A stretch of 64,000 bases of DNA from Chitinophagales bacterium (GTDB lineage Bacteria; Bacteroidota; Bacteroidia; Chitinophagales; CAIOSU01). The stretch's first letter is position 1, and every line of letters begins with the position of its first letter. Shown one piece after another: positions 11,017-55,391 of this stretch. The notes under the pieces are model-generated. The model had not been told where the DNA came from. It did no database searches and saw only the letters and a program-made list of their open reading frames with translations. Location of the stretch: NCBI GenBank assembly GCA_018401955.1, contig JAGYJT010000009.1, positions 1,871 to 65,870 on the forward strand. Reading direction: 5' to 3'. The translations under genes and the position numbers were made by a program.

Positions 11017-11024
11017 TTGTTATG

Positions 11025-11179
11025 TTATTGGTTAATCCGTTATTTGTTATTGGTGCATTATTGCCTGCATTATTGGCTATGATGATTAACTTAGCTACGG
11101 TAGTGTAGTTACAACCTGTTATTACCACCACAAGATACCACTACAAAATACCAATAACTAATAATCAATCAACCAATAA
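11025..11179. promoter_or_regulatory. Phased heptamer array TTATTGG / CCAATAA in a divergent intergenic region
   Basis: TTATTGG lies at 11025, 11047 and 11070, with TTATTGC at 11058 and TTATTAC at 11119. CCAATAA lies at 11151 and 11173. Spacings are 11, 12 or 22 bp. Confidence 0.5.
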
Positions 11180-11256
11180 CCAGTAGACCATACTATAACT
11201 GTATTTTGACAAAATTATTTTAAATTTCCCAATTAGGGCGGATGCTAAACAAATAA

Positions 11257-12138
11257 ATGAGCACAAACAAAGCTAAGGGTAGTCGGTTTTTCCGGAAGTT
11301 GAAGGATAAGTATCGCCTGGTGATACTAAATGATCAAACCTTTGAGGAGCGTGCATCAGTGCGCTTATCACGGTTTAACGTGTATGTAATTGCAGGAACC
11401 GTTTTCTTTTTGTTCACCATTTTTATCTTCGTTATTATAGCGTTTACGCCTATTAAGCAGTACATACCTGGCTATGGCGATTTGAGCGTAAGGCGTAACC
11501 TTATACAGTTGCGGCTTGAGGCCGACTCGCTGCAAAGTAGGGTGCACCAGCAAGAACTTTGGATAATAAATGCCCGAAACGTGCTGGCCGGCAACGATAC
11601 CCTTAACTTGGATACCACAGGCTTTGTGAGCCAGCCACCTAAGTATGATACCATAAAACTAGATGAGGTGCCGGCTGCCGATATGCTGTTGCGCGAAGAG
11701 ATGGAAAAGGAAGAGGACTATGCGCTGATGTTTACGCCCGATAACGGCAAACAAACGGAGAGCTTGAGCAACCTTAAACTGTTTCCACCGGTGTTGGGTT
11801 TGGTGTCGGCCTCGTTTGACCCATTAAATGACCACTTTGGCACCGATATAGTGGCCAAAGAAAAGGAAAGCATTAAAACGATATTGAACGGCACTGTGAT
11901 AATGGCCGACTGGACCGTGGAAACGGGCTATGTAATAGCCATACAGCACGAACACGACCTTATTAGTATATATAAGCACAACTCGGTATTGTTGAAAAAA
12001 GTTGGTACATTTGTTAAAACGGGTGAAGCCATTGCCATTATAGGAAATAGTGGTGAACAAACTACCGGGCCACACCTGCATTTCGAACTTTGGCGCAACG
12101 GCGTTCCGGTTGACCCGGAAAGTTATATTGTGTTCTAA
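11257..12138 (+). CDS. M23 (LytM-type) peptidoglycan endopeptidase with N-terminal TM anchor
   Basis: 293 aa. The C-terminal GNSGEQTTGPHLHFELW carries the M23 HxH signature. A TM helix lies near residue 45. Confidence 0.85.
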   Translation: MSTNKAKGSRFFRKLKDKYRLVILNDQTFEERASVRLSRFNVYVIAGTVFFLFTIFIFVIIAFTPIKQYIPGYGDLSVRRNLIQLRLEADSLQSRVHQQELWIINARNVLAGNDTLNLDTTGFVSQPPKYDTIKLDEVPAADMLLREEMEKEEDYALMFTPDNGKQTESLSNLKLFPPVLGLVSASFDPLNDHFGTDIVAKEKESIKTILNGTVIMADWTVETGYVIAIQHEHDLISIYKHNSVLLKKVGTFVKTGEAIAIIGNSGEQTTGPHLHFELWRNGVPVDPESYIVF

Positions 12139-16610: not shown

Positions 16611-17570
16611 ATGAAAATTTTTACGCTACCTATTTTTTGGCTGTTTGTTTTAATGTTTGGTTGTTTTGGTGCGTTCGCTCAAAGCAATGACGATTTAAAG
16701 CCAAAATTTATTGACCCAACTGCAAAAGACTCGATTAAGTATTGGACCTATGATGGCAATGCGGCCATAAACCTTAACCAAGTGGCCCTTAAAAACTGGG
16801 CCGGTGGTGGACAAAGTTCTATTGGCATAGGCGCTATATTTGGCTTAAAGGCAACATATGCCAAAAACAACTTTAGCTGGGATGTGAAGGCCGATATGGC
16901 TTTTGGCTTGCAAAAGTTGGGCAAACAGGAGTTTCGCAAGTCAGATGACTTTTTTGAAATAAGCTCACAGCTCAATTATAAATTTAAAACCGGATGGCGT
17001 TTTGCGTTTCTTACCACTTTGCGCAGCCAGTTTGCCCCCGGCTACGAATACCCCGAGGATACCACTAAAGTGCTCATTTCTAAAGGGTTTTCGCCAGCAT
17101 ATAGTATTATTGCCCCAGGTATTGAGTACCGTGCACCCAAGTACTTCAGTATCATGATATCGCCTATCACCAACAAAAACAACATTGTAATTGATAACGT
17201 GAATATTGACGAAACCCGCTATGGTGTTGAAGAGGGGAAAAATGTGTTTGCCCAGGCAGGTGCTTTTGTAACTACTACTTTTGAGATAGAAGTGGTGAAA
17301 AACGTAACCTACAAAACCAAGCTCGATTTGTTTAGCAATTACCTTCAAAACCCAGAAAACGTAGATGTAAACTGGACCAATAATGTAGTGATGAAGGTAA
17401 ACGACTTTTTGAACGTAACAGTAAGCACCGAGTTGGTGTATGATGATGATGTGTTTGTGCCCAAAACCCGCGATGATGGGAGTATTTACCAAGGCAAGGG
17501 TACCCAATTTCGCCAAGGCTTAACCATTGGTATTGGCTATAAATTTAAGAGCAAGGAGGAGCCTAAATAA
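16611..17570 (+). CDS. DUF3078-like outer-membrane beta-barrel protein
   Basis: The start is moved to MKIFTLPIFW, the signal peptide ending AFAQ. The motif NLNQVALKNWAGGGQSSIG matches my recollection of DUF3078. It has an alternating beta-strand pattern. Confidence 0.6.
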   Translation: MKIFTLPIFWLFVLMFGCFGAFAQSNDDLKPKFIDPTAKDSIKYWTYDGNAAINLNQVALKNWAGGGQSSIGIGAIFGLKATYAKNNFSWDVKADMAFGLQKLGKQEFRKSDDFFEISSQLNYKFKTGWRFAFLTTLRSQFAPGYEYPEDTTKVLISKGFSPAYSIIAPGIEYRAPKYFSIMISPITNKNNIVIDNVNIDETRYGVEEGKNVFAQAGAFVTTTFEIEVVKNVTYKTKLDLFSNYLQNPENVDVNWTNNVVMKVNDFLNVTVSTELVYDDDVFVPKTRDDGSIYQGKGTQFRQGLTIGIGYKFKSKEEPK

Positions 17571-17594
17571 TTTAAACCCTTCTTAATAATATAC

Positions 17595-17628
17595 ACGGTC
17601 CATCCTTTTTGGGTGGACCGTTTTTTTT
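17595..17628 (+). terminator. Rho-independent terminator
   Basis: ACGGTCCATCC-TTTTT-GGGTGGACCGT followed by T8. Confidence 0.85.
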
Positions 17629-17640
17629 GTTTGTGTTTTG

Positions 17641-17816
17641 TACATGTTTCGTACATAGGGAAAAACCCTATGCTATTGGTATTTTGAGCCCGTTGGGCTA
17701 AAACCGCTGATATGGAAATATGTACTTCCCCAACGGGGATATATAACGCTAGCACCGCCCTATGTACGTATTTTGTTGCGGGTGTGCGGGTGAATCTTAC
17801 ACAGGGCATCGCCTAT
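17641..17816. repeat. Modular hairpin-repeat family, copy A (inverted relative to copy C, plus a third partial module)
   Basis: 17641-17698 is the reverse complement of the L module. 17728-17770 is an S-type module. 17802-17816 (GGCATCGCC-TAT) is a fragment. See findings. Confidence 0.8.
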
Positions 17817-18063: not shown

Positions 18064-19065
18064 ATGGAACAAACCGCACACACCGACATTAGGGCATTGA
18101 ACGAAAAAATACAAGCCGAGAGTGCTTTTGTTGATTTGATTCAGGTTGAACTGGGCAAAGCCATCATTGGCCAAAAATATATGGTAGAGCGCTTATTGTT
18201 GGCACTATTGGGTCAAGGCCACATTTTGCTCGAAGGGGTGCCGGGCTTGGCTAAAACCTTGGCCATTACCTCACTATCAAAAGCCATTGATGTAAAGTTT
18301 AGCCGCATACAGTTTACACCCGACCTGTTGCCTGCCGATTTGATTGGTACCATGATATATAACCAGGCCAAAAACGACTTTACGGTAAGGCGAGGCCCCA
18401 TATTTGCCAACTTTGTACTGGCCGATGAAATAAACCGTGCCCCGGCTAAGGTGCAGAGTGCCCTACTAGAGGCCATGCAAGAGCGCCAAGTTACCATCGG
18501 GCAGCAAACCTATCCGCTGGAGAGCCCGTTTTTGGTGCTCGCTACACAAAACCCAATTGAGCAAGAGGGTACTTATCCGTTGCCAGAGGCGCAGGTTGAC
18601 CGTTTTATGCTGAAGGTGGTGGTAACCTACCCAAGCAAAGAGGAGGAGCGTTTGATTATGCGCCAAAACGTAAACCAAGAACGCATCAATATTCAGCCAG
18701 TGGTATCGCCAGAGGAGATATTGAAAGCCCGTGAGCTGGTGCGCATGGTATATATGGACGAAAAGATAGAGGCTTATATACTGGATATAGTGTTTGCTAC
18801 CCGCAACCCTGATAAATTTGGCTTGGGCAAATTAAAACCATTGATAAGTTATGGTGGTTCGCCAAGGGCCAGTATCAACCTAGCATTAGCGGCTAAGGCT
18901 TATGCCTTTATTAAGCGCCGTGGCTATGTAATACCAGAAGATGTAAAGGCGGTATGCTACGATGTAATGCGCCACCGCGTGGGGGTAACCTACGAGGCCG
19001 AAGCGGAGAACGTTACCAGCGAAATGATTATTAGCGAGATATTGAACAAGGTAGAGGTGCCTTGA
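18064..19065 (+). CDS. MoxR-family AAA+ ATPase
   Basis: 333 aa. Walker A is GVPGLAKT and Walker B is LADEINR. It is the first gene of the Bat-type operon. Confidence 0.9.
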   Translation: MEQTAHTDIRALNEKIQAESAFVDLIQVELGKAIIGQKYMVERLLLALLGQGHILLEGVPGLAKTLAITSLSKAIDVKFSRIQFTPDLLPADLIGTMIYNQAKNDFTVRRGPIFANFVLADEINRAPAKVQSALLEAMQERQVTIGQQTYPLESPFLVLATQNPIEQEGTYPLPEAQVDRFMLKVVVTYPSKEEERLIMRQNVNQERINIQPVVSPEEILKARELVRMVYMDEKIEAYILDIVFATRNPDKFGLGKLKPLISYGGSPRASINLALAAKAYAFIKRRGYVIPEDVKAVCYDVMRHRVGVTYEAEAENVTSEMIISEILNKVEVP

Positions 19066-19130
19066 TGGTAATTTAAAATTCAAAATTTAAGATTGAAAAT
19101 TAAAAATTGAGTTTAGCCCATAACAAGTTA

Positions 19131-19264
19131 GCTCCTCACCATTTTTAGGGGGAGGTTGGGACGAGGACAGAAGTTGAGAAAACACATAATGGTTCCCCCT
19201 CCTTTGCGTGGCCTTTTTTAAGCGATTGGCCAAGGAGGGGATAGGGGTGGTTGCACGTACCACC
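19131..19264. other. Hairpin-rich insert inside the Bat operon
   Basis: Three stem-loops: CTCCTCACC...GGGGGAGG; CCCCTCCTT(TGCG)TGGCC-N13-GGCCAAGGAGGGG at 19195-19240; and GGTGGT-TGCACGT-ACCACC at 19246-19264. Confidence 0.6.
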
Positions 19265-19284
19265 GACAAGATTTAAAAGCACAA

Positions 19285-20151
19285 ATGGAAACAAAAGAAC
19301 TCCTTAAGAAAGTACGGAAAATTGAAATCCGCTCGAAAGGGCTGAGCAATCACCTGTTTTCGGGAGAGTACCATACAGCCTTCAAAGGCAGGGGCATGTC
19401 TTTCAGTGAGGTGCGTGAGTATCAGTTTGGCGATGATGTGCGCACCATCGACTGGAACGTAACCGCCCGGCTCGACCACCCCTATGTAAAGGTATTTGAG
19501 GAGGAAAGAGAGCTAACGGTAATGCTGATGATTGACATAAGCCACTCATCTTTGTTCGGCACTGAAGGTCGCTTTAAGCGCGATTTGATTACCGAGGTAA
19601 GCGCAATACTTTCGTTTTCAGCCATCAACAATAATGATAAGGTTGGGGTAATATTTTTTAGTAATAAGGTAGAGAAGTTTATCCCGCCCAAAAAAGGCCG
19701 CAGCCACATATTGCGCATTATTCGCGAACTGATTGAATTAGAGCCCCAAGAAAGCGGCACCAACCTTGGCGAAGCCCTGCGCTATCTTAACAATGTAATG
19801 AAGAAAAAGGCCATTGTGTTTGTGCTGTCAGATTTTATTGATCGCGGCTATGAAGATGCCCTGAGCATTGCCCGCCGCAGGCACGATGTGGCCGGCATAC
19901 ATGTATACGACTTGTGGGAGAAAGACCTGCCACCATTGGGACTGGTAAGGGTGCTTGACCCAGAGACCAAAGAAGTGCGCTGGGAAGATTTTTCGAGCAA
20001 AACAACCCGAATGAAGCACAACAAGTGGTTTGAAGACAACCGCCAACATACACGAAACGCATTTCTTAAGGCTGGTGCCGATATGGTGAGCATTTGCACC
20101 AACGAAGACCATATTTTGCCACTCTTAAAATTCTTTAGAAAACGGGGATGA
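19285..20151 (+). CDS. DUF58-family protein (MoxR partner)
   Basis: 288 aa. It has the conserved FxGxxxSxxxGxGxEFxxxRxYxxGDDxRxIDW-like block (FKGRGMSFSEVREYQFGDDVRTIDW). Confidence 0.85.
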   Translation: METKELLKKVRKIEIRSKGLSNHLFSGEYHTAFKGRGMSFSEVREYQFGDDVRTIDWNVTARLDHPYVKVFEEERELTVMLMIDISHSSLFGTEGRFKRDLITEVSAILSFSAINNNDKVGVIFFSNKVEKFIPPKKGRSHILRIIRELIELEPQESGTNLGEALRYLNNVMKKKAIVFVLSDFIDRGYEDALSIARRRHDVAGIHVYDLWEKDLPPLGLVRVLDPETKEVRWEDFSSKTTRMKHNKWFEDNRQHTRNAFLKAGADMVSICTNEDHILPLLKFFRKRG

Positions 20152-21122
20152 TGAATTGGTGGAAGCGGAATAGTAAGCAATTAGCAACGCCAATAATGGT
20201 AGTGGCCATGCTATGTTTATACGGCACAACCGCTGCCCAGCCCGAAATAGAAGCCACTATTGCACCTAAAGAGGTGCTTATTGGGCAGCCAGCTACCCTT
20301 ACCTTGCAGGTAAAGCATAAGCCTGATGTTACCGTTTTTTGGCCGAATATGGATGTCGAAATAAGGGTAGATAGTAATAAGACCATAGAGGTACTGGACA
20401 AAAGCAGAATAGATACGCTTAACGTTGGTGGCTACGTACAAGAAAAATTGGAGCTACAAGTTACCGCTTGGGATACGGGGTTTTATATCATTCCACCGTT
20501 CAATTTTCTGTATCAAAACCCAACCGATACGGCACCCATTGCCATACAAAACTATCCGGTGCTGTTGCAGATAAATACCATAGCCGTGGATACCACACAA
20601 GCATTCAAGGGGCTAAAGGCACCCATTGATGCTCCATTTAGTATTTGGGAGTATAAGTATTGGATTGGTGGCGGCATAGTAGCGCTGGCATTAATAACCT
20701 TCTTGTTCTACATCATGTTCCGTAAAGTTGATATTGCGGCTAAGGTAGCCCCTAAGGCCAAAAAGCCCGCCCATGAGGTTGCCATGGAAAAGCTGCAAGC
20801 TTTGGAGCAAGCACAATACTGGCAGCAGGGCGATATAAAAAGTTATTACTCGGGCCTGAGCGATATCATGCGTGAATATCTGGAGATTCGATTTAGGTTC
20901 TTGGCCATTGAGAGCACTACCAACGAGATATTTGTGAGCTTGGATAAGCTAGATTTGCCAGCCAAGCAGCGCGACCAGTTGAAAGAAATGTTTACGCTAT
21001 CAGATTTGGCAAAGTTTGCCAAAGTGCAACCACTGCCCGATGAGCACATAAATGCCATGCGCACCGCAACTGAGTTTGTAAACGCAACACAAAAACGAAA
21101 CACAGATAATGCCGATGTTTAG
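20148..21122 (+). CDS. Bat-operon membrane protein (unnamed ORF between DUF58 and batA)
   Basis: 324 aa with a signal peptide and one central TM helix. It overlaps both neighbours (ATGA at 20148; 14 nt with batA). Confidence 0.6.
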   Translation: MMNWWKRNSKQLATPIMVVAMLCLYGTTAAQPEIEATIAPKEVLIGQPATLTLQVKHKPDVTVFWPNMDVEIRVDSNKTIEVLDKSRIDTLNVGGYVQEKLELQVTAWDTGFYIIPPFNFLYQNPTDTAPIAIQNYPVLLQINTIAVDTTQAFKGLKAPIDAPFSIWEYKYWIGGGIVALALITFLFYIMFRKVDIAAKVAPKAKKPAHEVAMEKLQALEQAQYWQQGDIKSYYSGLSDIMREYLEIRFRFLAIESTTNEIFVSLDKLDLPAKQRDQLKEMFTLSDLAKFAKVQPLPDEHINAMRTATEFVNATQKRNTDNADV

Positions 21123-22101
21123 TTTTTGGCAACATATCGATTTTGCAGAGCCAAGGGCTTTTATGCTGCTGGTGTTGCCAGGGCTGTTATTGCTATGGAA
21201 TGCTTGGCGGTACAATAAACAATATGCTGAGTTGCGCATGAGTACCATGCAAAGCTTTGGTGATAGCAACGGTGGCTACAAAGGCTGGTTTAAGGGGGCA
21301 CTTTTTCTATTGCGGATAATAACCTTTTGCTTGCTGATTGTGGTTTTGGCGCGCCCACAAAGCAATCTTAAAGAAGAGAATATAACCGCTGAAGGTATTG
21401 ATTTGGTTATCGCACTGGATGTATCTACCAGTATGTTGGCTGAAGATTTTCAGCCTAATAGGTTATCGGCTGCCAAAAGCTTAGCCGCCGATTTTATTGC
21501 CAATCGCCCCAGCGACAGGGTAGGCCTGGTAGTATTTGCTGCCGAAAGCTTTACCCAGTGCCCCATTACCACCGATAGGCAAGTGGTACTTAATCTATTG
21601 GCCAAAATTAAGGATGGGTTGATTGAAGACGGCACCGCCATAGGTATGGGCCTTGCCACAGCGGTAAGCCGGCTAAAAGAAAGCGAGGCGAAAAGCAAGG
21701 TGGTGATATTGCTTACTGATGGTATTAACAACACTGGTTTTATCGACCCCGTAACGGCATCTGATGCGGCGCTGGAGTATGGTGTGCGGGTGTATACCAT
21801 TGGCGTGGGCACCATAGGCAAAGCCCGCCACCCGCAAAGCCCTGTACCAGTAGATGTGAAAATTGACGAGCCGCTATTGAAAGATATTGCCCAGGCAACT
21901 GGTGGCAAGTATTTCCGTGCTACCAACAACGAGAGCTTGAAGCAGATATATGATGAGATTGATACCTTAGAGAAAACCAAAATCGAGGTATCAACCATAC
22001 AGCGGGTATCTGATGAGTTTTATTGGCTTTTGTTTGCAGCGGGCATGTGTTTGCTGCTTGAAATGATATTGCGTTACACCCTAGTAAGAAGTATACCATA
22101 A
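21109..22101 (+). CDS. batA: VWA-domain membrane protein BatA
   Basis: 330 aa. It has N- and C-terminal TM helices and a VWA domain with MIDAS motif DVSTSM. Confidence 0.8.
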   Translation: MPMFSFWQHIDFAEPRAFMLLVLPGLLLLWNAWRYNKQYAELRMSTMQSFGDSNGGYKGWFKGALFLLRIITFCLLIVVLARPQSNLKEENITAEGIDLVIALDVSTSMLAEDFQPNRLSAAKSLAADFIANRPSDRVGLVVFAAESFTQCPITTDRQVVLNLLAKIKDGLIEDGTAIGMGLATAVSRLKESEAKSKVVILLTDGINNTGFIDPVTASDAALEYGVRVYTIGVGTIGKARHPQSPVPVDVKIDEPLLKDIAQATGGKYFRATNNESLKQIYDEIDTLEKTKIEVSTIQRVSDEFYWLLFAAGMCLLLEMILRYTLVRSIP

Positions 22102-23147
22102 TGATGCGTTTCGAACATCCGGATCACCTATATGGGCTGTTGCTGGTATTATTGCCAGCGGTTGCCTTTATTGCCTATGCCGTATGGAGGAAACGAGCAT
22201 TAAGCAAGTATGGCGACCAGCGCTTGATTGAGATGCTGATGCCCGAGCGCTCTAAATATAAAGTCTACATTAAGTTTGTATTGTTGGTGCTGGGGTACAG
22301 CTGTTTGGTACTGGCCTATGCCAATCCGCAGTTGGGTAAGCGTGTTGAGAAGGTGAAGCTTAAAGGCGCCGATGTGTTTATCGCCATTGATGTATCCAAT
22401 AGCATGATGGCCGAAGATTTAAAGCCTAACCGTATAAGTCGCGCCAAGCAATTTGTATCGCGCTTGGTTGAGCAAATGAAAAACGATAGGGTAGGGCTTA
22501 TAGTGTTTGCTGGCCATAGCTATATGCAAATGCCGCTTACCAGCGATAAGGCTGCCGCCAAATTGTTCCTCAATAGTGTATCAACCAATATTGTACCTAC
22601 ACAAGGCACCTCTCTATCAGAGGCCATCCGTATGGCTATGGAGAGCTATAGTGAAGAGCAGGGAAAATACCGCGCCCTAATAATACTTACTGATGGAGAA
22701 GACCATGAGGGCGAGGCGCTAGTAGCTGCCGAAGAGGCCGATAAAGCAGGTATAGTAATTCATACCATTGGCGTTGGTGACCCTAAAGGTGCCCCAATAC
22801 CGGTTAAAAAGAATGCCTATAAGGAAGACTTTAAGCGAGCCAGTGACGGCAGCATTGTGTTATCAAAGCTCAACGAGACCATATTGCAGCAAATAGCCGC
22901 TACGGCACATGGTAAGTATTTTAGGATGGGCACCGGTTCTGAAGAGCTAAGTTTGATTATGAAGGAGCTTGAAGGGCTGGAAAAACGCGAAATGAGCGAG
23001 CGTGAGGTAACAGACTATAAGAGCTACTATTTCGTTTTTGTTATTATCGGAATGGTTCTGTTAACTTTGGAGTTCTTGTTGGCGGAGCGCAGAAGCAATT
23101 GGTTGCGTAACCTAAATCTGTTTGGAACCAAGGAGGAAACGGCATGA
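22101..23147 (+). CDS. batB: VWA-domain membrane protein BatB
   Basis: 348 aa. MIDAS motif is DVSNSM. It is a paralog of BatA, with stop/start overlap. Confidence 0.8.
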   Translation: MMRFEHPDHLYGLLLVLLPAVAFIAYAVWRKRALSKYGDQRLIEMLMPERSKYKVYIKFVLLVLGYSCLVLAYANPQLGKRVEKVKLKGADVFIAIDVSNSMMAEDLKPNRISRAKQFVSRLVEQMKNDRVGLIVFAGHSYMQMPLTSDKAAAKLFLNSVSTNIVPTQGTSLSEAIRMAMESYSEEQGKYRALIILTDGEDHEGEALVAAEEADKAGIVIHTIGVGDPKGAPIPVKKNAYKEDFKRASDGSIVLSKLNETILQQIAATAHGKYFRMGTGSEELSLIMKELEGLEKREMSEREVTDYKSYYFVFVIIGMVLLTLEFLLAERRSNWLRNLNLFGTKEETA

Positions 23148-23938
23148 TGAACAGGGTGTTTATATTTTCTTTGATGATACTGCTGCCCGTTATGCTGTGG
23201 GCGCAGGCAGAGCGTAAATATATACGTGAGGGCAACGCACTATACCAAAGTGGTAAGTTTAAAGAGGCTGCTGCAATGTATGCCGAAGCCATGCGCATTA
23301 AAAAAGATTACTTGGCAGCATACCTAAACCAAGGCAATGCGCTATATCAACAAGATAGCTTAGATGCTGCCATCAAGCAATTTGAGCTTGCCGCGAGTCT
23401 TTCTACTGATAAGGATTTGAAGGCAAAGGCCTTTCATAATATGGGCAACTCTTATTTGAAAGCGGGCAAGTACGAAGAGAGTATTGAAGCCTATAAAAAT
23501 GCACTGCGCAATAACCCCAACGACCCGGATACTCGATACAACTTGGCTTACGCCCAAAGTAAACTGAAAAACCAACCGCCGCAAGACCAAGACAAGGAAG
23601 ACCAAAAGAAGGATAAGGACGAGGATAAGGATAAAGACAACAAGAGCGAGCAGCAAGATAAGGATCCGCAAAAAAACGACCAGCAAAAAGACGACAAAGG
23701 CAAGAAGAACGAGGACCCTAAAGACCCTAAAGACGGCGATAAGGGAGACCCTAACGACGCGGAGAAATCTAAAGATGAACAGGACGAAAAGAATATGCAG
23801 CCTAAGCCTGGGCAAATAAGTAAGGCCGATTTGGAGAAGCTGCTGGAGGCTTTGAAAAATGAAGAGCTGAAGCTGCAAGAAAAGCTGCTACGAAAGGATA
23901 CGCCAAACGAGCAGAATAAGATTGAGAAAGATTGGTAA
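23144..23938 (+). CDS. batC: TPR protein BatC with K/D/E-rich tail
   Basis: 264 aa. A signal peptide is followed by TPR repeats and then a long charged low-complexity region. Confidence 0.7.
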   Translation: MMNRVFIFSLMILLPVMLWAQAERKYIREGNALYQSGKFKEAAAMYAEAMRIKKDYLAAYLNQGNALYQQDSLDAAIKQFELAASLSTDKDLKAKAFHNMGNSYLKAGKYEESIEAYKNALRNNPNDPDTRYNLAYAQSKLKNQPPQDQDKEDQKKDKDEDKDKDNKSEQQDKDPQKNDQQKDDKGKKNEDPKDPKDGDKGDPNDAEKSKDEQDEKNMQPKPGQISKADLEKLLEALKNEELKLQEKLLRKDTPNEQNKIEKDW

Positions 23939-23969
23939 TAGCATTATTGCCTAAAATACAACGCGAGAA

Positions 23970-25754
23970 GTGATTGGTAAAAAACTAATACCGTTTTTAA
24001 TGTTGCTGCTGCTGGCATTTGCCGCCTCAGCGCAGACTGGTTCATTTAAGGCAATTGTGTCTAAAACTACCTTTGCCGAAAATGAATCTATACAGGTTAC
24101 GTTTTCTATCGAGAACATGAGCGACCGTAACTTTGCCCCGCCCGATTTTAGAGGCTTTAATGTATTGTCGGGCCCCATGAAGGGTATGAGTAATATGAAC
24201 ATTAATGGGGTGCGCACCTCATCGGTTACCTATGTTTACCTTTTGCAGGCCCAAGCGCCTGGTAAGCTTACCATTGGGCCCGCATCTATTGAGCATAATG
24301 GCAAAACGGTAAGGAGCAATAGCATTACCCTTACGATTACCAAAGCTGGCTCGCGCAATAATAATAGTGGGGGAGGCAATAACGGAGGTGGCAATGAGAA
24401 TGTGAGCGTAAACGACTACCTCAACGAAAATCTTTTTGTAAGGCTATTTGTTGACAAAAAAGAGGTGTACAAAGGTGAGCAGGTTACGGCAACCTACAAA
24501 CTATACCGTAAGCTACAAGTAGACCAATATAGCATTACCCAAGCCCCTGCCTTCAATGGTTTCTGGACCATTGATATCGAGGATTCAAAAACCATCGATT
24601 TTGACGTTGAAACGCTTAATGGTGTACAATACTATGTTGCCACGGTGCGCAAAGTGGCTTTGTTTGCTCAAAAAACGGGTGAGTTGGAGATTGACCCAAT
24701 GGGTTTGGAATGCATGGTAGTGGTGCCTACCGGTGGTTGGAGTTACCGTAAGTTCCAGCATAAATTTAGCAGCGGTAAGGCAAAAATTACCGTAAAGCCA
24801 CTGCCAGGCAATCAGCCAGCTGATTTCAGCGGATTGGTTGGTGAGCTGGATATGCAGGTTACCATGGATAAAACCAATGCCCAAACCGATGACCCCATTA
24901 CTTTGAGCATCAAATATAGCGGCAAAGGAAACCTTAAGTTTTTAGAGAACCCGCAGCCAGAGTTACCCAAAGATTTTGAGATGTTTGACCCTAAGCTTTC
25001 TGAGCGGTCTACAAGGCAGGGCAATGTGGTTGGTGGTACCCGTCAAATTGATTATTTATTGATACCTAGGCGGGCCGGTACGTATAAGCTACCACCAATA
25101 ACTACCAGTTATTTTGACTTGAAAAAGGGCGATTATGTAACCTTGCGTTCACCCGAAATTGTATTATCCGTAAAAGGAGAATCATCTGTAACTACACCAG
25201 CTACCACGGGCATTAACAAAGAGGAGGTGGAGCTTTTAGGGAAAGATATAAGGTATATAGAAACTGGCGAACCAGAATTGACCACCGAAGGCAGCTTTGT
25301 GATGCCATTGCCGCTATACGCAGGGGTATATGCTACTCCTTTCTTGCTGTTTTATGGGCTACTGGCTTTTAAGCGCAAGCGAGATAAGGAGTTGGGCAAT
25401 ACTAAACTAATGAAGCGCCGAAAGGCGGGTAAAGTGGCCGCTAAGCGACTGAAGCAGGCCGAAGAGCGCATGAACGCGCAAGATAAACGAGGTTTTTATG
25501 ATGAGTTGCTGAAAGCTACTTGGGGCTATCTAAGCGATAAGCTGGGTATTCCTCCTTCAGATATGAACAAAGATATGGCATTAAATGCGTTGCGTGCCCG
25601 GAGCATTGATGAGGCACAATTAAATGAGCTGGGTATAATGCTTGATACTGCTGAGATGGCTTTATATGCTCCATCAACCGTTAATGAGAGTTTGCAGCAA
25701 ACATATGATAGGGCTACGGCTATTATTGACCAACTTGAAAACTCATTATCATGA
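23970..25754 (+). CDS. batD: BatD-like protein
   Basis: 594 aa with a GTG start, a signal peptide and a TM helix near the C-terminal third. Operon position fits. Confidence 0.7.
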   Translation: MIGKKLIPFLMLLLLAFAASAQTGSFKAIVSKTTFAENESIQVTFSIENMSDRNFAPPDFRGFNVLSGPMKGMSNMNINGVRTSSVTYVYLLQAQAPGKLTIGPASIEHNGKTVRSNSITLTITKAGSRNNNSGGGNNGGGNENVSVNDYLNENLFVRLFVDKKEVYKGEQVTATYKLYRKLQVDQYSITQAPAFNGFWTIDIEDSKTIDFDVETLNGVQYYVATVRKVALFAQKTGELEIDPMGLECMVVVPTGGWSYRKFQHKFSSGKAKITVKPLPGNQPADFSGLVGELDMQVTMDKTNAQTDDPITLSIKYSGKGNLKFLENPQPELPKDFEMFDPKLSERSTRQGNVVGGTRQIDYLLIPRRAGTYKLPPITTSYFDLKKGDYVTLRSPEIVLSVKGESSVTTPATTGINKEEVELLGKDIRYIETGEPELTTEGSFVMPLPLYAGVYATPFLLFYGLLAFKRKRDKELGNTKLMKRRKAGKVAAKRLKQAEERMNAQDKRGFYDELLKATWGYLSDKLGIPPSDMNKDMALNALRARSIDEAQLNELGIMLDTAEMALYAPSTVNESLQQTYDRATAIIDQLENSLS

Positions 25755-26524
25755 AAAGGTGGTTGATACATATTGCCATGTTGTGGGTGTGCCTTAGCGC
25801 TGCCGCTAACGAAACGGTTGATTTTACGGCCATATACAATACAGCCAACGATGCATATGTAGCCAAGGATTACCAAAGCGCAATTGAAGGCTATGAGCAG
25901 CTGTTATCAGTAGGTAAAGTATCGCCTGCCGTATATTACAACTTGGGCAATGCCTATTTTAGGGTGGGCAGTATGGGTTTTGCAATACTCAACTACGAGC
26001 GTGCCTTAAAATTGGAGCCAGAACACGAAGATGCCGCATTTAACCTAAAGCTTGCCAACCTACAAATTAATGATAGGGTAGAGCCAGCTACCGAGTTTAT
26101 CCTAATTACTTGGTTCAATAAGCTGGTGCATGGCCGCTCGGCATCGGGCTGGGGTATTTGGGCCCTCGCTGCTATTTGGTTGGCATTGGTAATAGGGGTG
26201 CTCTACATTTTTAGTGGCAACTTAGCGCTGCGCCGAGTGGCGTTCGCGTTTATGGCTATGTTTATAGTAGGTTCGGTGGTGTTGATGGGTTTTGCTAAAA
26301 TCCAATACCAATATGAGAATGTAACTACCAAAGGCATTATTACCGTAACTAATACCTATGTAAAGGCCGCTCCTGACCAAAGCAGCACCGATTTGTTCAT
26401 TTTGCGCGAAGGTACCAAAGTAACCCTAATGGGCACCGAAAACGGCTGGCAAAAAGTTAAAGTTGCCGACGATGCCGGCGATAAGGTTGGCTGGGTGCGC
26501 GAAGATGTTTTAGGGCTTATCTAA
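25751..26524 (+). CDS. batE: BatE-like protein (TPR, TM helices, C-terminal SH3b)
   Basis: 257 aa. TPR repeats, then two TM helices, then an SH3-like C-terminus (GWQKVKVADDAGDKVGWV). Confidence 0.7.
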   Translation: MKRWLIHIAMLWVCLSAAANETVDFTAIYNTANDAYVAKDYQSAIEGYEQLLSVGKVSPAVYYNLGNAYFRVGSMGFAILNYERALKLEPEHEDAAFNLKLANLQINDRVEPATEFILITWFNKLVHGRSASGWGIWALAAIWLALVIGVLYIFSGNLALRRVAFAFMAMFIVGSVVLMGFAKIQYQYENVTTKGIITVTNTYVKAAPDQSSTDLFILREGTKVTLMGTENGWQKVKVADDAGDKVGWVREDVLGLI

Positions 26525-27532: not shown

Positions 27533-27621
27533 GAGGAGGTTTGAGGCAACTAATTTACAGAAACATGGAACAATATGCAGGAGTAAAGGTTTAGATGGCC
27601 TTAGTATTGCATATTGTGGTT

Positions 27622-27749
27622 CACCCCAAAGGGGTTTTATATCATTAGCATGGGGTCATTTCCCCATGTACGAAACACGTATAAATATTACGTAGGGCGA
27701 TGCCCCATCCTAGTGTTATGCATCCCCGTTTGGGGGACATACGTATTTT
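27622..27749. repeat. Modular hairpin-repeat family, copy B (module order L then S)
   Basis: CACCCCAAAGGGG...ATTAGCATGGGG...CCCCATGTACGAAACACGTA is followed by GTAGGGCGATGCCCCATCCTAGTGTTATGCATCCCCGTTTGGGGG. Confidence 0.8.
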
Positions 27750-27773
27750 GGATTTATCTCAACAATCCAACTC

Positions 27774-32741: not shown

Positions 32742-34304
32742 TTATAAAACAATTCCCATTTGTATGGCAATGGCTTCCGCACACCGTTCCCCATCCATAG
32801 CTGCCGACATGATGCCGCCCGCATAGCCAGCACCTTCGCCGCAAGGGTATAGGCCCTTTAGTTGTGGGTGCTGCAATGTTTCATCCCTTGGTATGCGCAC
32901 AGGTGTGCTGGTGCGGCTCTCTACGCCCACCAATACTGCCTCTTCGGTTACATAGCCACGCATCTTTTGTCCAAATGCTTGTAACCCCTCACGCAAGCGC
33001 AAGTGTACCTCGCTAGGCAGCACTGCTTCTAAATCGTAAGAAGTTAGCCCTGGATGGTACGAGCAGTTGGGCAGGGTAGTGCTCACCTTGTTGCGAATAA
33101 AGTCGGTAACGCGCTGTGCTGGGGCTTTTAATTTTCCGCCACCAGCCGCAAACGCTTTTTGCTCCACTTCGGCTTGGTAGTGCATGCCCGCCAATGGGCC
33201 AAAACGTTGGTAGGCCTTAAAGTCTTTATCACCCACGCTCACCACCATGCCTGAGTTGGCGTAAGGGTTGTTACGCTTACTCGGCGACCAGCCATTTACC
33301 ACCACTTCGCCTGGGCTAGTGCTTGCCGGGGCAATAATGCCACCCGGGCACATGCAAAACGAAAACACCCCTCGGCCCATCGCTTGGTGCACTAGGCTAT
33401 AGCTGGCTGCTGGCAGCAAATCGCCACGCACGTCGCATTTGTATTGTATGCTGTCAATTAGTTCTTGTGGGTGCTCAATGCGCACGCCTAGGGCAAAAGG
33501 TTTGGCCTCCACTTCAAGGCCCATGCCGTGCAGCATCTCAAATATATCGCGTGCACTGTGGCCCGTGGCTAGTATTAGCGCTTGGGCTATGTGCTTTTCG
33601 CCATCGGCACAGGCAATGCCCGTTAGTTGCCCACCTTTATGAAGTATTTGGGTGAGTTTGGTGCTAAAATGCACTTCGCCACCGCAATCCTCCACATACT
33701 GGCGCATGGCACTAATAATTTGCGGTAGCTTGTTGGTACCTATATGTGGATGTGCTTGGTAATTGATGGCGCTATCGGCACCAAAGCGGGTAAAAAGATC
33801 GAGTACCCGTTGTATATCACCACGCTTTTTGCTGCGGGTGTATAGTTTACCATCGCTGTAGGTGCCAGCACCACCTTCACCATAGCAATAGTTGCTTTCG
33901 GGGTTTACTTCGCCCAGTTTGTTTATGGCAGCCAAATCACGGCGACGGTTGCGCACATCTTTGCCACGCTCTAGTATCACGGGTTTCAACCCTAGCTCAA
34001 TCAATCGTATGGCGGCAAACAACCCGGCAGGGCCAGCACCAGCAATCAATACGGGCTTGGCGTTGCGTACATCTATAACTTGTGGGATGGTATAGTTTTC
34101 GGGGGTATATGGTTCGTCAACCACCACCTCTACCATCACCTGCATCATTACATGCTTCGAGCGGGCATCAATCGATTCGCGAACGCGGCGGATGCCTGTT
34201 ATACGGTTTGGCGATACGCCAACTGCTTGGGCGCATTTAGCTATTACGGTATGCGCTTCGGCATTTTCTTGCGGCGTTATCCGCAGTTGTATTTGTTTTC
34301 TCAT
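32742..34304 (-). CDS. FAD-dependent oxidoreductase (COG2509-like uncharacterised dehydrogenase)
   Basis: 520 aa. It has GAGPAGL dinucleotide fold motifs and the C-terminal GEGAGYAGGI signature. Confidence 0.8.
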   Translation of the reverse strand: MRKQIQLRITPQENAEAHTVIAKCAQAVGVSPNRITGIRRVRESIDARSKHVMMQVMVEVVVDEPYTPENYTIPQVIDVRNAKPVLIAGAGPAGLFAAIRLIELGLKPVILERGKDVRNRRRDLAAINKLGEVNPESNYCYGEGGAGTYSDGKLYTRSKKRGDIQRVLDLFTRFGADSAINYQAHPHIGTNKLPQIISAMRQYVEDCGGEVHFSTKLTQILHKGGQLTGIACADGEKHIAQALILATGHSARDIFEMLHGMGLEVEAKPFALGVRIEHPQELIDSIQYKCDVRGDLLPAASYSLVHQAMGRGVFSFCMCPGGIIAPASTSPGEVVVNGWSPSKRNNPYANSGMVVSVGDKDFKAYQRFGPLAGMHYQAEVEQKAFAAGGGKLKAPAQRVTDFIRNKVSTTLPNCSYHPGLTSYDLEAVLPSEVHLRLREGLQAFGQKMRGYVTEEAVLVGVESRTSTPVRIPRDETLQHPQLKGLYPCGEGAGYAGGIMSAAMDGERCAEAIAIQMGIVL

Positions 34305-34367
34305 AGGGTTAGGTGGTTATCCTAAAACACTGCTGCAAAATTACCATTTTGTTATTGCATAATGCAG

Positions 34368-34500
34368 ATAGGGCGATGCCTCATCCTAATGTTATGTTTC
34401 CCCGTTGTGGAAGGTTTATATTTTCATAATGCGTTTTCACCCCAACGGGGTTTAATTACCAATAGCATAGGGTCTTTTTCTTATGCACGAAACATGCACA
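34368..34500. repeat. Modular hairpin-repeat family, copy C (S then L; most complete)
   Basis: ATAGGGCGATGCCTCATCCTAATGTTATGTTTCCCCGTTGTGG...CACCCCAACGGGGTTTAATTACCAATAGCATAGGGTCTTTTTCTTATGCACGAAACATGCACA. Confidence 0.8.
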
Positions 34501-34696
34501 AAAACACCGTTTTAACCCACCCACCATATTAAATTTCACTTTGGTTAAAATATTTACCCCACCGCTTCGTACTTCCATACCACGAGCGGCTGATAAAAGT
34601 TATGTATTCATTTTTGGTGGGTAAAAAATTGACGTTGGTCGAGAAAACTTTAAAAAACTTTGGAAACTATTTAACATTTTTTGGTTTCCTGCGTTT

Positions 34697-35344
34697 TTGT
34701 GCTATAACTTTGCCGCTGAAATTAAAATTAGGTGCTTTTTGGATACACTGGATAAAATTCTTTTTAAAGCAGAGGAGCTGTTTTTTACCTATGGGGTAAA
34801 AAACACTACTATGGACGATCTCTCTAGGGCATTAGGGGCATCTAAAAAAACCTTGTATCAGTTTGTAACTGATAAGGCCGACCTAGTGAATCGTACCATG
34901 GAAAGCCACCTGATGCTTGAGCAAGCACAAATTGGCGAGTTGGTTTCTCAAGCACCCAATGCTATTGAGGAATTACTATCGATTGCTCGACACGTAACCA
35001 GCCACATGAAAGGCATAAACCCCGCTATTGTTAGCGATATGATGCGCTTTTACCCAGCAGCATGGCAGCGGTTTACTGATTACAAAATGACCTTTATATA
35101 CAACACCATGTTAAATAACATCAACAGGGGGATAGCAGAGGGTTTGTATAGAGACGACATCAATCCGGATATAATAGCCAAAATTTATATCGCTCGCATG
35201 GATGTGATTATCGATCAAAAACTGTTCCCGTTTGCCAAATATGATTTTGTATCCGTTTATACTGAAACTATAAACTACCATTTGCACGGTATTGTCTCAG
35301 CCAAGGGGCAGGCCTATCTGGAAAAAAAGAAAACACTGGAATAA
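34697..35344 (+). CDS. TetR/AcrR-family transcriptional regulator
   Basis: 215 aa. The N-terminal HTH is ILFKAEELFFTYGVKNTTMDDLSRALGASKKTLYQF. The exact start is uncertain. It is the first gene of the efflux operon. Confidence 0.8.
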   Translation: MCYNFAAEIKIRCFLDTLDKILFKAEELFFTYGVKNTTMDDLSRALGASKKTLYQFVTDKADLVNRTMESHLMLEQAQIGELVSQAPNAIEELLSIARHVTSHMKGINPAIVSDMMRFYPAAWQRFTDYKMTFIYNTMLNNINRGIAEGLYRDDINPDIIAKIYIARMDVIIDQKLFPFAKYDFVSVYTETINYHLHGIVSAKGQAYLEKKKTLE

Positions 35345-41408: not shown

Positions 41409-41446
41409 GAGGTTCGGGGAATGCAGGCCCCGAACCTCTTATTTTA
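41409..41446 (+). terminator. Rho-independent terminator after the RND pump
   Basis: GAGGTTCGGGG-loop-CCCCGAACCTC (11-bp perfect stem) followed by TTATTTTA. Confidence 0.8.
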
Positions 41447-41498
41447 CCTCAACGGGGTTTCTTATCATTAGCATAGGGTTTATCCCCATATACGTAAT
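41447..41498. repeat. Modular hairpin-repeat family, copy D (solo L module)
   Basis: CCTCAACGGGGTTTCTTATCATTAGCATAGGGTTTATCCCCATATACGTAATG. Confidence 0.7.
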
Positions 41499-41599
41499 GT
41501 CAAACAGATAACACTTAAACCATTTACCCGTGTCGGTGTTTTCCGCAGAATCATTGCTCATTAGCCCCAATTATTGGTAGTTTTATAGTCTAATCAAGC

Positions 41600-55309: not shown

Positions 55310-55317
55310 GGCGTGTG

Positions 55318-55391
55318 TACCGAGAGGGAGAATTGAACTCCCGACCTCAGGGTTATGAATCCTGCGCTCTAACCATCTGAGCTACCTCGGT
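55318..55391 (-). tRNA. tRNA with CAT anticodon (elongator Met, or Ile2 if lysidine-modified)
   Basis: The minus strand reads ACCGAGGTAGCTCAGATGGTTAGAGCGCAGGATTCATAACCCTGAGGTCGGGAGTTCAATTCTCCCTCTCGGTA. It folds as a cloverleaf with a 7-bp acceptor, GCTC/GAGC D-stem, TTCATAA anticodon loop and GGGAG/CTCCC T-stem. No CCA is encoded. Confidence 0.85.

Follow-up and report, generated by a model that had tools for sequence, protein, structure and literature searches.

Repetitive extragenic palindromic (REP) sequences, their paired forms (REPINs) and the tyrosine transposases linked to REPs (RAYTs) offer the best case of bacterial mobile DNA that is long-lived and passed on vertically; their characterisation has been confined almost entirely to Proteobacteria, in systems combining RAYTs of class 2 with palindromes headed by GTAG. 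REP/RAYT work of Nunvar, dating from 2010, reportedly stands beside that devoted to the Escherichia coli and Pseudomonas systems. The descriptions of REP/RAYT and REPIN-RAYT used here for comparison are those of Bertels & Rainey (2011, PMC3116915), Ton-Hoang (2012, PMC3333891) and Messing (2012, PMC3479197), and the biochemistry of IS608 TnpA and E. coli TnpA-REP is well established (PMC3333891, PMC3479197). In the classification of Quentin et al. (2018, PMC6006769, Table 1), the Y1 transposases of subclass 1.2, with a median length of 148 amino acids and a mean of 1.7 copies per genome in Cyanobacteria and Bacteroidetes, carry a "no" in the REP column, the automatic REP search of that study having demanded a GTAG or GTGG head; the same authors described "atypical secondary structures" flanking the Y1 genes of subclass 2.6 (Bacteroidetes) and of class 3 (e.g., Solibacter, about 600 copies). 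A "RAYT-like IS200 Group 3", devoid of duplicates, absent from plasmids and associated with abundant flanking 16-mers, was also reported (Bertels et al. 2017, PMC5581495). The present analysis deals with a family of short hairpin repeats occurring in a 64,000-nucleotide stretch of contig JAGYJT010000009.1 from a Chitinophagales bacterium, hereafter the window. These repeats probably represent a REP/REPIN-like family of non-autonomous elements mobilised by an IS200-like Y1 enzyme, the copies in the window being gene-less derivatives.

A profile built from the window copies and run with nhmmer over the whole 64 kb detects seven units distributed among four loci, A to D (E = 1e-18 to 3e-13, the next match having E = 0.66), all of which are located between open reading frames (ORFs) of at least 80 amino acids. 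The initial annotation, made from the sequence by a model, had placed a composite of two modules, L and S, at four strictly intergenic places; all four are present at its coordinates, but the composites it counted resolve into seven units plus a possible remnant. Each unit consists of a single repeat of roughly 50-65 nt, S being a diverged L on the opposite strand. The modular structure and the degenerate reverse complementarity proposed for S both hold, as a covariance model of the unit matches the minus-strand S units with 48-52 bits. The core patterns of L and S have no match in shuffled sequence, and the pattern of the first hairpin (H1) is observed 6 times in the window versus 0.89 expected in shuffles. 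The units, made of the hairpins H1 and H2 detailed below, are listed by position:

17637-17702, minus strand: L-type unit of locus B (nhmmer 17701-17637, E = 1.5e-17; covariance model 56.6 bits)
17724-17781, plus strand: degenerate unit of locus B, with H1 intact and the 5' arm of H2 deleted (nhmmer 17725-17781, E = 3e-13; covariance model 33.8 bits)
17800-17816, no strand: possible H2-only remnant CACAGGGCATCGCCTAT, weak, read from the sequence
27620-27685, plus strand: L-type unit of locus C (nhmmer 27621-27685, E = 1.1e-18; covariance model 57.9 bits)
27685-27738, minus strand: S-type unit of locus C (nhmmer 27737-27685, E = 3.7e-14; covariance model 47.9 bits)
34358-34414, minus strand: S-type unit of locus A (nhmmer 34413-34358, E = 3.9e-14; covariance model 52 bits)
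34436-34503, plus strand: L-type unit of locus A (nhmmer 34437-34503, E = 1.4e-16; covariance model 47.2 bits)
41443-41509, plus strand: solo L-type unit of locus D (nhmmer 41444-41509, E = 1.8e-17; covariance model 56 bits)

Depending on the locus, the units are thus arranged as L-S (C), as S-L (A), as a minus-strand L followed by a plus-strand unit (B), or occur alone (D). The best-preserved doublet is that of locus C (27620-27738), a REPIN-like succession of L and S in which the L unit forms the left half. Locus A, presented in the initial annotation (34368-34500) as the most complete copy, is in fact decayed, with a modified 3' arm of H2 (CTTATG), an S-unit H1 reading CCCCGTTGTGG and a composite fold no better than that of shuffled sequence (z = -0.09). 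Its L-type unit comprises H1 (CACCCCAACGGGGT), H2 (AGCATAGGGT..CTTATG) and a tail (CACGAAACATGCAC), and its S-type unit, which reads TAGGGCGATGCCTCATCCTAATGTTATGTTTCCCCGTTGTGG on the plus strand, is 89% identical to the S unit at 27693-27730. The possible remnant at 17800-17816 resembles the H2 modules adjoining Y1 genes in other genomes (CACAGGGCGTTGCCCTGTG). The minus-strand ORF at 17537-17809, the only one to run across a locus and already suspected of being spurious, has no Pfam match and overlaps a terminator on the opposite strand. The local density corresponds to 1 locus per 14-21 kb, both in the window and in the syntenic contigs L001 + L049, L002 and L050 of close relatives (L numbers designate the loci compared).

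In the unit, H1, (N)CCCC-AAC-GGGG(N'), forms 5-6 bp and is separated by a linker of some 8-10 nt from H2, (T)AGCATRGGG(T)-loop-(A)CCCYATG, which forms 8-9 bp; a short tail TACGAAACATGTA or a third hairpin, H3, comes next. The length of the unit amounts to 50-65 nt in the window and to about 100 nt beside the Y1 genes. The consensus of 34 aligned units is nTAGCCCCAACGGGG. Compensatory changes, scored in the alignment of these 34 units on covarying columns not fixed by the search pattern, support both hairpins. The H1 pair 7-19 occurs as GC in 15 units, AU in 11, GU in 4, UA in 3 and unpaired in one; the H2 pair 37-58 as AU in 22 and GC in 7; and the H2 pair 34-61 as CG in 27 and GC in 2, the latter exchange being the L-to-S switch. 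The covariation score reaches 0.211 versus 0.136 +/- 0.011 in shuffles, a value attained by none of 500 shuffles, and falls to 0.099 or less once the partner columns are slid. The small internal hairpins read from the sequence in the initial annotation are genuine. It also suggested that neighbouring modules could pair into a long hairpin; the centroid structure of locus C corresponds to such an L/S hairpin, and the composite folds of loci C (z = -2.9) and B (z = -3.0) are clearly more stable than those of shuffles. The loop of H2 accommodates inserted stems in L013, L019, L020 and L030, and G-T wobble positions are confined to one strand. Neither GTAG, GTGG nor CGTC is conserved at the foot of either hairpin in the alignment; GTAG is present in some S units (ACGTAGGGCG) and absent from the S units flanking Y1 genes. 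The units thus lack the GTAG or GTGG head demanded by the search of Quentin et al. As predicted from the sequence, Rfam contains no corresponding family: at gathering thresholds, Rfam 15 run over the whole window returns a tRNA-Met as sole match, and at E up to 10 on positions 34300-34700 only four chance-level matches of at most 15 bits.

In other genomes, the units bracket a transposase gene. The metagenome contig L032 contains, between inverted unit copies at 167-207 and 841-881 (41 nt each, 88% complementary), a 150-amino-acid ORF encoding a Y1 HUH transposase (Pfam Y1_Tnp, E = 3e-23; NCBIfam IS200/IS605 model, 63.8 bits for a cut-off of 55). The flanks of six further independent homologues were examined, namely L038, L039, L040 (identical with L041 and L042, Balneolaceae), L045 (identical with L046 and L047, Bacteroidetes GWF2_38_335), L048 and L051 (Persicobacter sp. 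JZB09 Plasmid3). Inverted units flank the Y1 gene in L032, L038, L040, L045, L048 and L051, and H3 only is recognisable in L039. Upstream of the gene, an L-type unit on the plus strand is followed by H3 (AGCCCTG(A/T)AAGGGC); downstream, H3 on the minus strand is followed by an S-type unit (CAYAGGGCGTTGCCCYRTG, then TAATGCT and a short GC hairpin). The order unit(+), gene, unit(-) is invariable in L038, L040, L045 and L048, and likewise in Persicobacter, the flanking inverted repeats measuring 40-59 nt with 76-88% complementarity. The covariance model, seeded with dispersed units and with L038, L040, L045, L048 and L051 outside the seed, matches both flanks of the Y1 genes in these five loci (E = 1e-8 to 2e-2) and has no other match in the 12-20 kb loci L045, L040, L048 and L038. 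It follows from these matches that the window's L and S are two flavours of one REP-like element, L matching the unit on the left flank and S that on the right. An S-L junction similar to that of locus A also occurs between adjacent units beside the Y1 genes in L045. The claim that no transposase accompanies the repeats is thus correct for the window, where Pfam and NCBIfam scans of 20 ORFs recognise none, but does not extend to these other genomes. With respect to the forms occurring in the window, the doublet of locus C can be regarded as a Y1 element minus its gene, i.e., a REPIN, the S/L or L/L junctions of loci A and B as resembling bacterial interspersed mosaic elements (BIMEs), and locus D as a solo unit.

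In L038 (9600-11050), the Y1 gene, belonging to a 6.5-Mb genome, is bordered on both sides by long arrays of modules [CAYAGGGCGNTGCCCTRTG][TAATGCTG][GAACCCTTTCAGGGTT] that recur about every 62 nt; a block "ttattaatagactatcta..GCCCTGAAAGGGC" occurs directly before the gene and again after the downstream array.

The Y1 protein belongs to a large and conserved family. More than 7,900 homologues are retrieved at E <= 1e-10, the best 120 of which are all about 150 amino acids long and 69-99% identical, and nine diverse members share 70-81% identity with invariant catalytic motifs. The motifs DH[VI]H, WQ and YI(K/R)NQxEHH, together with the C-terminal end YDERYVWD, indicate that the unit-flanked proteins carry the subclass 1.2 signature of Quentin et al. 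(2018), which they further resemble by their length (about 148-150 amino acids), Bacteroidetes hosts and low copy number; they differ from that subclass as recorded, without REPs, by the inverted hairpin units flanking the gene. The nearest solved structures in a PDB profile search are those of IS608 TnpA (2A6M and 2VJV, E = 5e-12), the E. coli TnpA-REP structure 4ER8 being not matched, and the NCBIfam scan returns the IS200 model and no other family. No tnpB-type Pfam family adjoins any of the Y1 genes examined. Among 72,556 plasmids, two full-length relatives only were found, both on Bacteroidota replicons of about 600 kb. A gene of such low copy number (one in a 632-kb replicon) encoding so conserved a protein looks domesticated. 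It may also be this clade that Bertels et al. (2017) described as IS200 Group 3.

The complete 631,941-bp Plasmid3 of Persicobacter sp. JZB09, searched for both units and Y1 genes, contains one Y1 gene only (286852-287301), flanked by an L unit at 286719-286826 and an S unit at 287293-287402. Six gene-less L/S doublets occur within 279-292 kb, their outer flanks being mutually paralogous (up to 97% over 400 nt), and more distant gene-less copies, about 190 kb away and with unrelated flanks, comprise a doublet at 475367-475603 and a solo unit at 477497-477584. This replicon supports dispersal only modestly. In the 279-292 kb region (CP012861.1; L057, L051) the doublets separate paralogous gene cassettes whose upstream ends read ..tcttccgataaaatggtcaaagcc.., and the region might be an array of polymorphic cassettes with doublets at the junctions.

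The family is not restricted to these lineages. A first scan of the genome collection with the pattern TAGCATRGGGTN{3,8}CCYATRTACGWA, too lineage-bound, gave no match; a second one, using one genome per species and the pattern CCCCAAYGGGN{8,14}AGCATRGGGT, gave 28 loci, in 16 of which a complementary H2 3' arm (ACCCTATG) exists even though the pattern did not demand it. These 16 loci belong to Chitinophagales, Saprospiraceae, Prevotellaceae and other Bacteroidota metagenome-assembled genomes (MAGs), with a few MAGs labelled Planctomycetes, Desulfobacteraceae or Pseudomonadota. A metagenome scan gave 6 matches, L032 among them, all of which are real. The family is therefore present in relatives and in many other genomes, and no described family was matched, in agreement with the initial annotation, which recognised no insertion sequence (IS) or miniature inverted-repeat transposable element (MITE) family. 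Across the 16 loci the orientation of the units with respect to the neighbouring genes is inconsistent, the unit being antisense to both neighbours in L023 and L026 and converging on a gene 3' end in L006, and the genes beside the units are functionally unrelated. A gene-less palindromic doublet of about 190 nt in L005 possesses the same ends as the Y1-flanking units, and so do the gene-less doublets of Persicobacter.

Full two-hairpin units also occur on contigs from Planctomyces (L020), Desulfobacteraceae (L030) and Pseudomonadota (L019) MAGs, and on contigs of 58-64% G+C labelled Prevotellaceae/Alloprevotella (L025 and L027); units outside Bacteroidota or at odd G+C reflect either horizontal spread or mis-binned contigs. 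Other loci exhibit local reiterations. Three-copy tandem arrays of units occur in Bacteroidota MAG060 (L021:1-215, repeating every 82 nt, and L022:2440-2665, repeating about every 90 nt), the L022 array stopping 20 nt before a TolC-like gene; a CRISPR identity for these arrays was rejected, the "spacers" being themselves repeated as in tandem duplications. In L004 (2051-2125), L035 (6116-6190) and L036 the unit is followed by tandem copies of H2 by itself, e.g., ATAGGGTgccaACCCTATGaaac occurring twice or a 17-nt period in L035, and short microsatellite-like repeats of CGTATT/CGTGTT or TGTGTTA follow the unit in L010 and L023.

Comparison of the window with the syntenic loci of close relatives, i.e., L001 and L049 (from one MAG), L002, L003 and L050, demonstrates that copies are both retained, and gained and lost. 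The unit of locus D occupies an orthologous site in all four genomes compared (window, L001, L002 and L003), L002 possessing there an additional S-type module of about 58 nt. The junctions of this module, compared with the window, exhibit no target-site duplication, a feature whose absence had been noticed from the window sequence. Locus A is present in L001 with an extra insert of 150 nt and in L002 with a different order of modules. At locus B, L049 keeps the L unit and an intact second unit including the H2 arm, and both are absent in L050, which harbours a unit elsewhere (18389-18439). L049 lacks locus C. The short-read contigs of near-identical relatives end at repeat edges, the first position of L002 being inside H1 and that of L043 at window position 17812; a multi-copy repeat would be expected to produce such breaks. 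At the position of the locus C doublet (window 27533-27773), L049 (15433-16540) contains a DUF433-PIN toxin-antitoxin-like gene pair and a small ORF, and what it shares with the window is limited to roughly the first 60 nt beside the DUF3089 gene; this intergenic site looks like an insertion hot spot.

The window itself, with 43.6% G+C, encodes typical Bacteroidota functions, such as DUF3078 and DUF3089 proteins, a polyprenyl synthase and a TetR-TolC-MFP-RND efflux operon, the nearest named homologues of its proteins being found in Saprospiraceae and Chitinophagales MAGs with about 50% identity. Locus A lies between divergent genes, upstream of the TetR-TolC-RND operon. The L unit of locus B begins 16 nt past an intrinsic terminator (17595-17621), and locus D directly follows another one (41409-41438), the polyprenyl synthase gene lying some 90 nt downstream. 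Locus C is bordered by the 3' end of a thioredoxin-reductase-like gene on one side and by the 5' end of the DUF3089 gene on the other. Three other features of the window deserve mention. A complete Bat/MoxR-type ("Bacteroides aerotolerance"-like) operon occupies positions 18064-26524 and comprises genes for a MoxR ATPase, a DUF58 protein, the BatA and BatB VWA proteins, a TPR protein, BatD and a TPR/SH3 protein, as assigned from Pfam matches on the syntenic locus L049. A pair of 31-nt inverted repeats, 84% complementary and 95 nt apart (11024-11180), rich in the motif TTATTGGT / ACCAATAA, is located in the intergenic DNA upstream of the gene at 11257, and a similar block, ATTATTGGTA, at 41570-41585, upstream of the polyprenyl synthase gene, is strictly conserved in all relatives; such blocks may be promoter or regulator sites. 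A single tRNA-Met (CAT) gene, on the minus strand at 55317-55391, is the sole Rfam or ARAGORN match.

Compared with the E. coli REP/BIME and Pseudomonas REPIN-RAYT systems, the family shares short extragenic hairpin repeats, two flavours pairing in inverted orientation like the Y and Z REPs of BIMEs or the halves of a REPIN, the coexistence of solo, paired and clustered forms (doublet in L005, arrays in L021, L022 and L038), a Y1 HUH gene placed between inverted copies of the repeat as in a REPtron, the lack of target duplications and a long persistence at orthologous sites. In contrast to canonical REPs, which consist of one palindrome of 20-40 nt, the unit is made of two or three hairpins of 4-9 bp spread over 50-100 nt, with no GT[AG]G or CGTC head, and the associated protein possesses the class-1 motif Y---Q--HH instead of the class-2 motif Y---NP of RAYTs. 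Owing to the missing GTAG head, the multi-hairpin units and an enzyme of class 1 rather than class 2, the family is best filed as a system that works like REP/REPIN and stands outside the canonical family. It resembles the IS200/IS605 elements (IS608, ISDra2) by the Y1 HUH transposase of about 150 amino acids, by the subterminal hairpins used as recognition elements and, by analogy, by single-strand transposition without target duplication. However, the ends of IS200/IS605 elements consist of different hairpins on the same strand, whereas the flanks described here are inverted copies; no tnpB adjoins the Y1 genes, no high-identity multi-copy IS was seen, and, unlike in IS turnover, the Y1 family remains about 70% identical across thousands of sequences. 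The structures flanking subclass 2.6 and class 3 genes are also similar in being weak, non-GTAG hairpins around a Y1 gene with further copies in the genome, and subclass 2.6 occurs in the same phylum, but this comparison relies on descriptions and not on sequences, and the subclass 2.6 proteins differ (about 179 amino acids, NH[LIV]H, YIH[QN]NP).

The mode of propagation suggested by these likenesses is the following. A unit exposed on transiently single-stranded DNA would fold into H1, H2 and either H3 or the tail; a cognate Y1 enzyme, presumably encoded elsewhere in the genome of the window's host and acting in trans, would recognise the folded hairpins in the manner of IS608 TnpA and E. coli TnpA-REP, and would cut and rejoin the DNA beside them, leaving no target duplication. 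The chemistry and sites of cleavage are likewise extended from these two enzymes. Copies would land in intergenic DNA, twice in the window right after intrinsic terminators, and would then persist and decay over long periods.

A number of points weigh against this REP/REPIN-like interpretation. All the cases of Y1-flanking units belong to genomes other than that of the window, so that the link to the transposase comes from other lineages, and tblastn over the window and all the fetched loci of close relatives detects no Y1 gene. In the Y1-carrying loci the units are mostly clustered around the gene, and 6 of the 8 gene-less Persicobacter copies may have been duplicated along with larger segments. 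Mobility is deduced from sequence comparison, no transposition event having been observed, and the figure of some 200-400 loci genome-wide is only an extrapolation from the local density. The composite folds of loci A (z = -0.09) and D (z about 0) are no better than those of shuffles. Finally, relatives at 87-97% protein identity have kept the locus A and D copies at the orthologous sites, a retention that selection for a host function could produce as well.

The main rival to the REP/REPIN reading starts from this last point and supposes that the units are host-selected, non-mobile structural or regulatory elements, either protein-binding palindromes or RNA structures at 3' or 5' ends, tuning neighbours such as the TetR-TolC-RND operon, the Bat operon and the polyprenyl synthase gene. 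The conservation of the locus A and D units among three relatives would fit such a role, as would the covariation of both hairpins, the fact that one or more units at each of the four window loci are directed at the start of a downstream gene, and the proximity of the L022 array and of locus A to TolC-type genes. We nevertheless consider it unlikely, because the orientation of the units towards the genes is as inconsistent as the functions of the latter are unrelated, copies are present or absent among relatives and several are visibly decayed, and units bracket a transposase gene in seven loci (with H3 only in L039). Moreover, from their position after complete intrinsic terminators, and for D upstream of the conserved promoter-proximal block, loci B and D are probably poorly transcribed. 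A cis-regulatory leader or riboswitch, to which the two downstream TolC-type genes had drawn attention, was rejected in view of the orientations and neighbours at the 16 loci. Individual copies may have been exapted by the host.

A structured non-coding RNA family outside Rfam, whether a small RNA, a ribozyme or a riboswitch-like motif, could likewise account for the two conserved hairpins with compensatory changes, the H2-loop insertions of variable length (L013, L019, L020, L030), the G-T wobbles restricted to one strand and the wide taxonomic spread. Covariation and strand asymmetry are, however, equally expected of a single-stranded DNA recognised by a Y1 enzyme, and the occurrence of units as pairs in inverted orientation, in tandem arrays whose "spacers" are identical and alone in either orientation to genes, an inconsistent promoter/terminator context, the lack of any Rfam match even at E = 10 and the inverted disposition of the units around a transposase gene make such an RNA family very improbable. 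Still more doubtful is the derivation of the units as MITEs from a classical IS with a DDE transposase, with L and S as terminal inverted repeats. Inverted L and S can indeed pair into a hairpin of about 120-130 nt, and L005 contains a palindromic element of about 190 nt, but no target-site duplication is visible where relatives differ in possessing a module, the pairs occur in both orders and units also occur alone, the only gene found between the ends encodes a Y1 HUH transposase, and the scanned parts of the window contain no DDE transposase gene. Between the two affinities initially proposed for the repeats, REP/BIME-like or MITE-like, solo units, both pair orders and the Y1 link in other genomes thus support the former.

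Beyond the REP/REPIN reading of the window copies, subclass 1.2 Y1 transposases, hitherto regarded as "orphans" devoid of REPs in Cyanobacteria and Bacteroidetes, could form a second, independently domesticated RAYT-like lineage in the IS200 class, maintaining a multi-hairpin REP family across Bacteroidota and occasionally beyond; this broader proposal, which we advance tentatively and at somewhat less than even chances, would see the H1+H2+H3 units and their left and right flavours as belonging to that REP family, and the window as showing one host population of these elements. If the link between the units and the Y1 genes holds, a large and conserved IS200-like family of more than 7,900 homologues would gain its cognate DNA substrate, and the conserved hairpins would become a concrete target for the biochemistry of recognition and cleavage. 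The family would also explain common assembly breaks in Bacteroidota MAGs, as well as intergenic "structured" motifs that can be mistaken for novel RNAs. A REP-like system in these bacteria is not surprising in principle; its interest would reside in giving a DNA partner to a large subclass recorded until now as REP-less.

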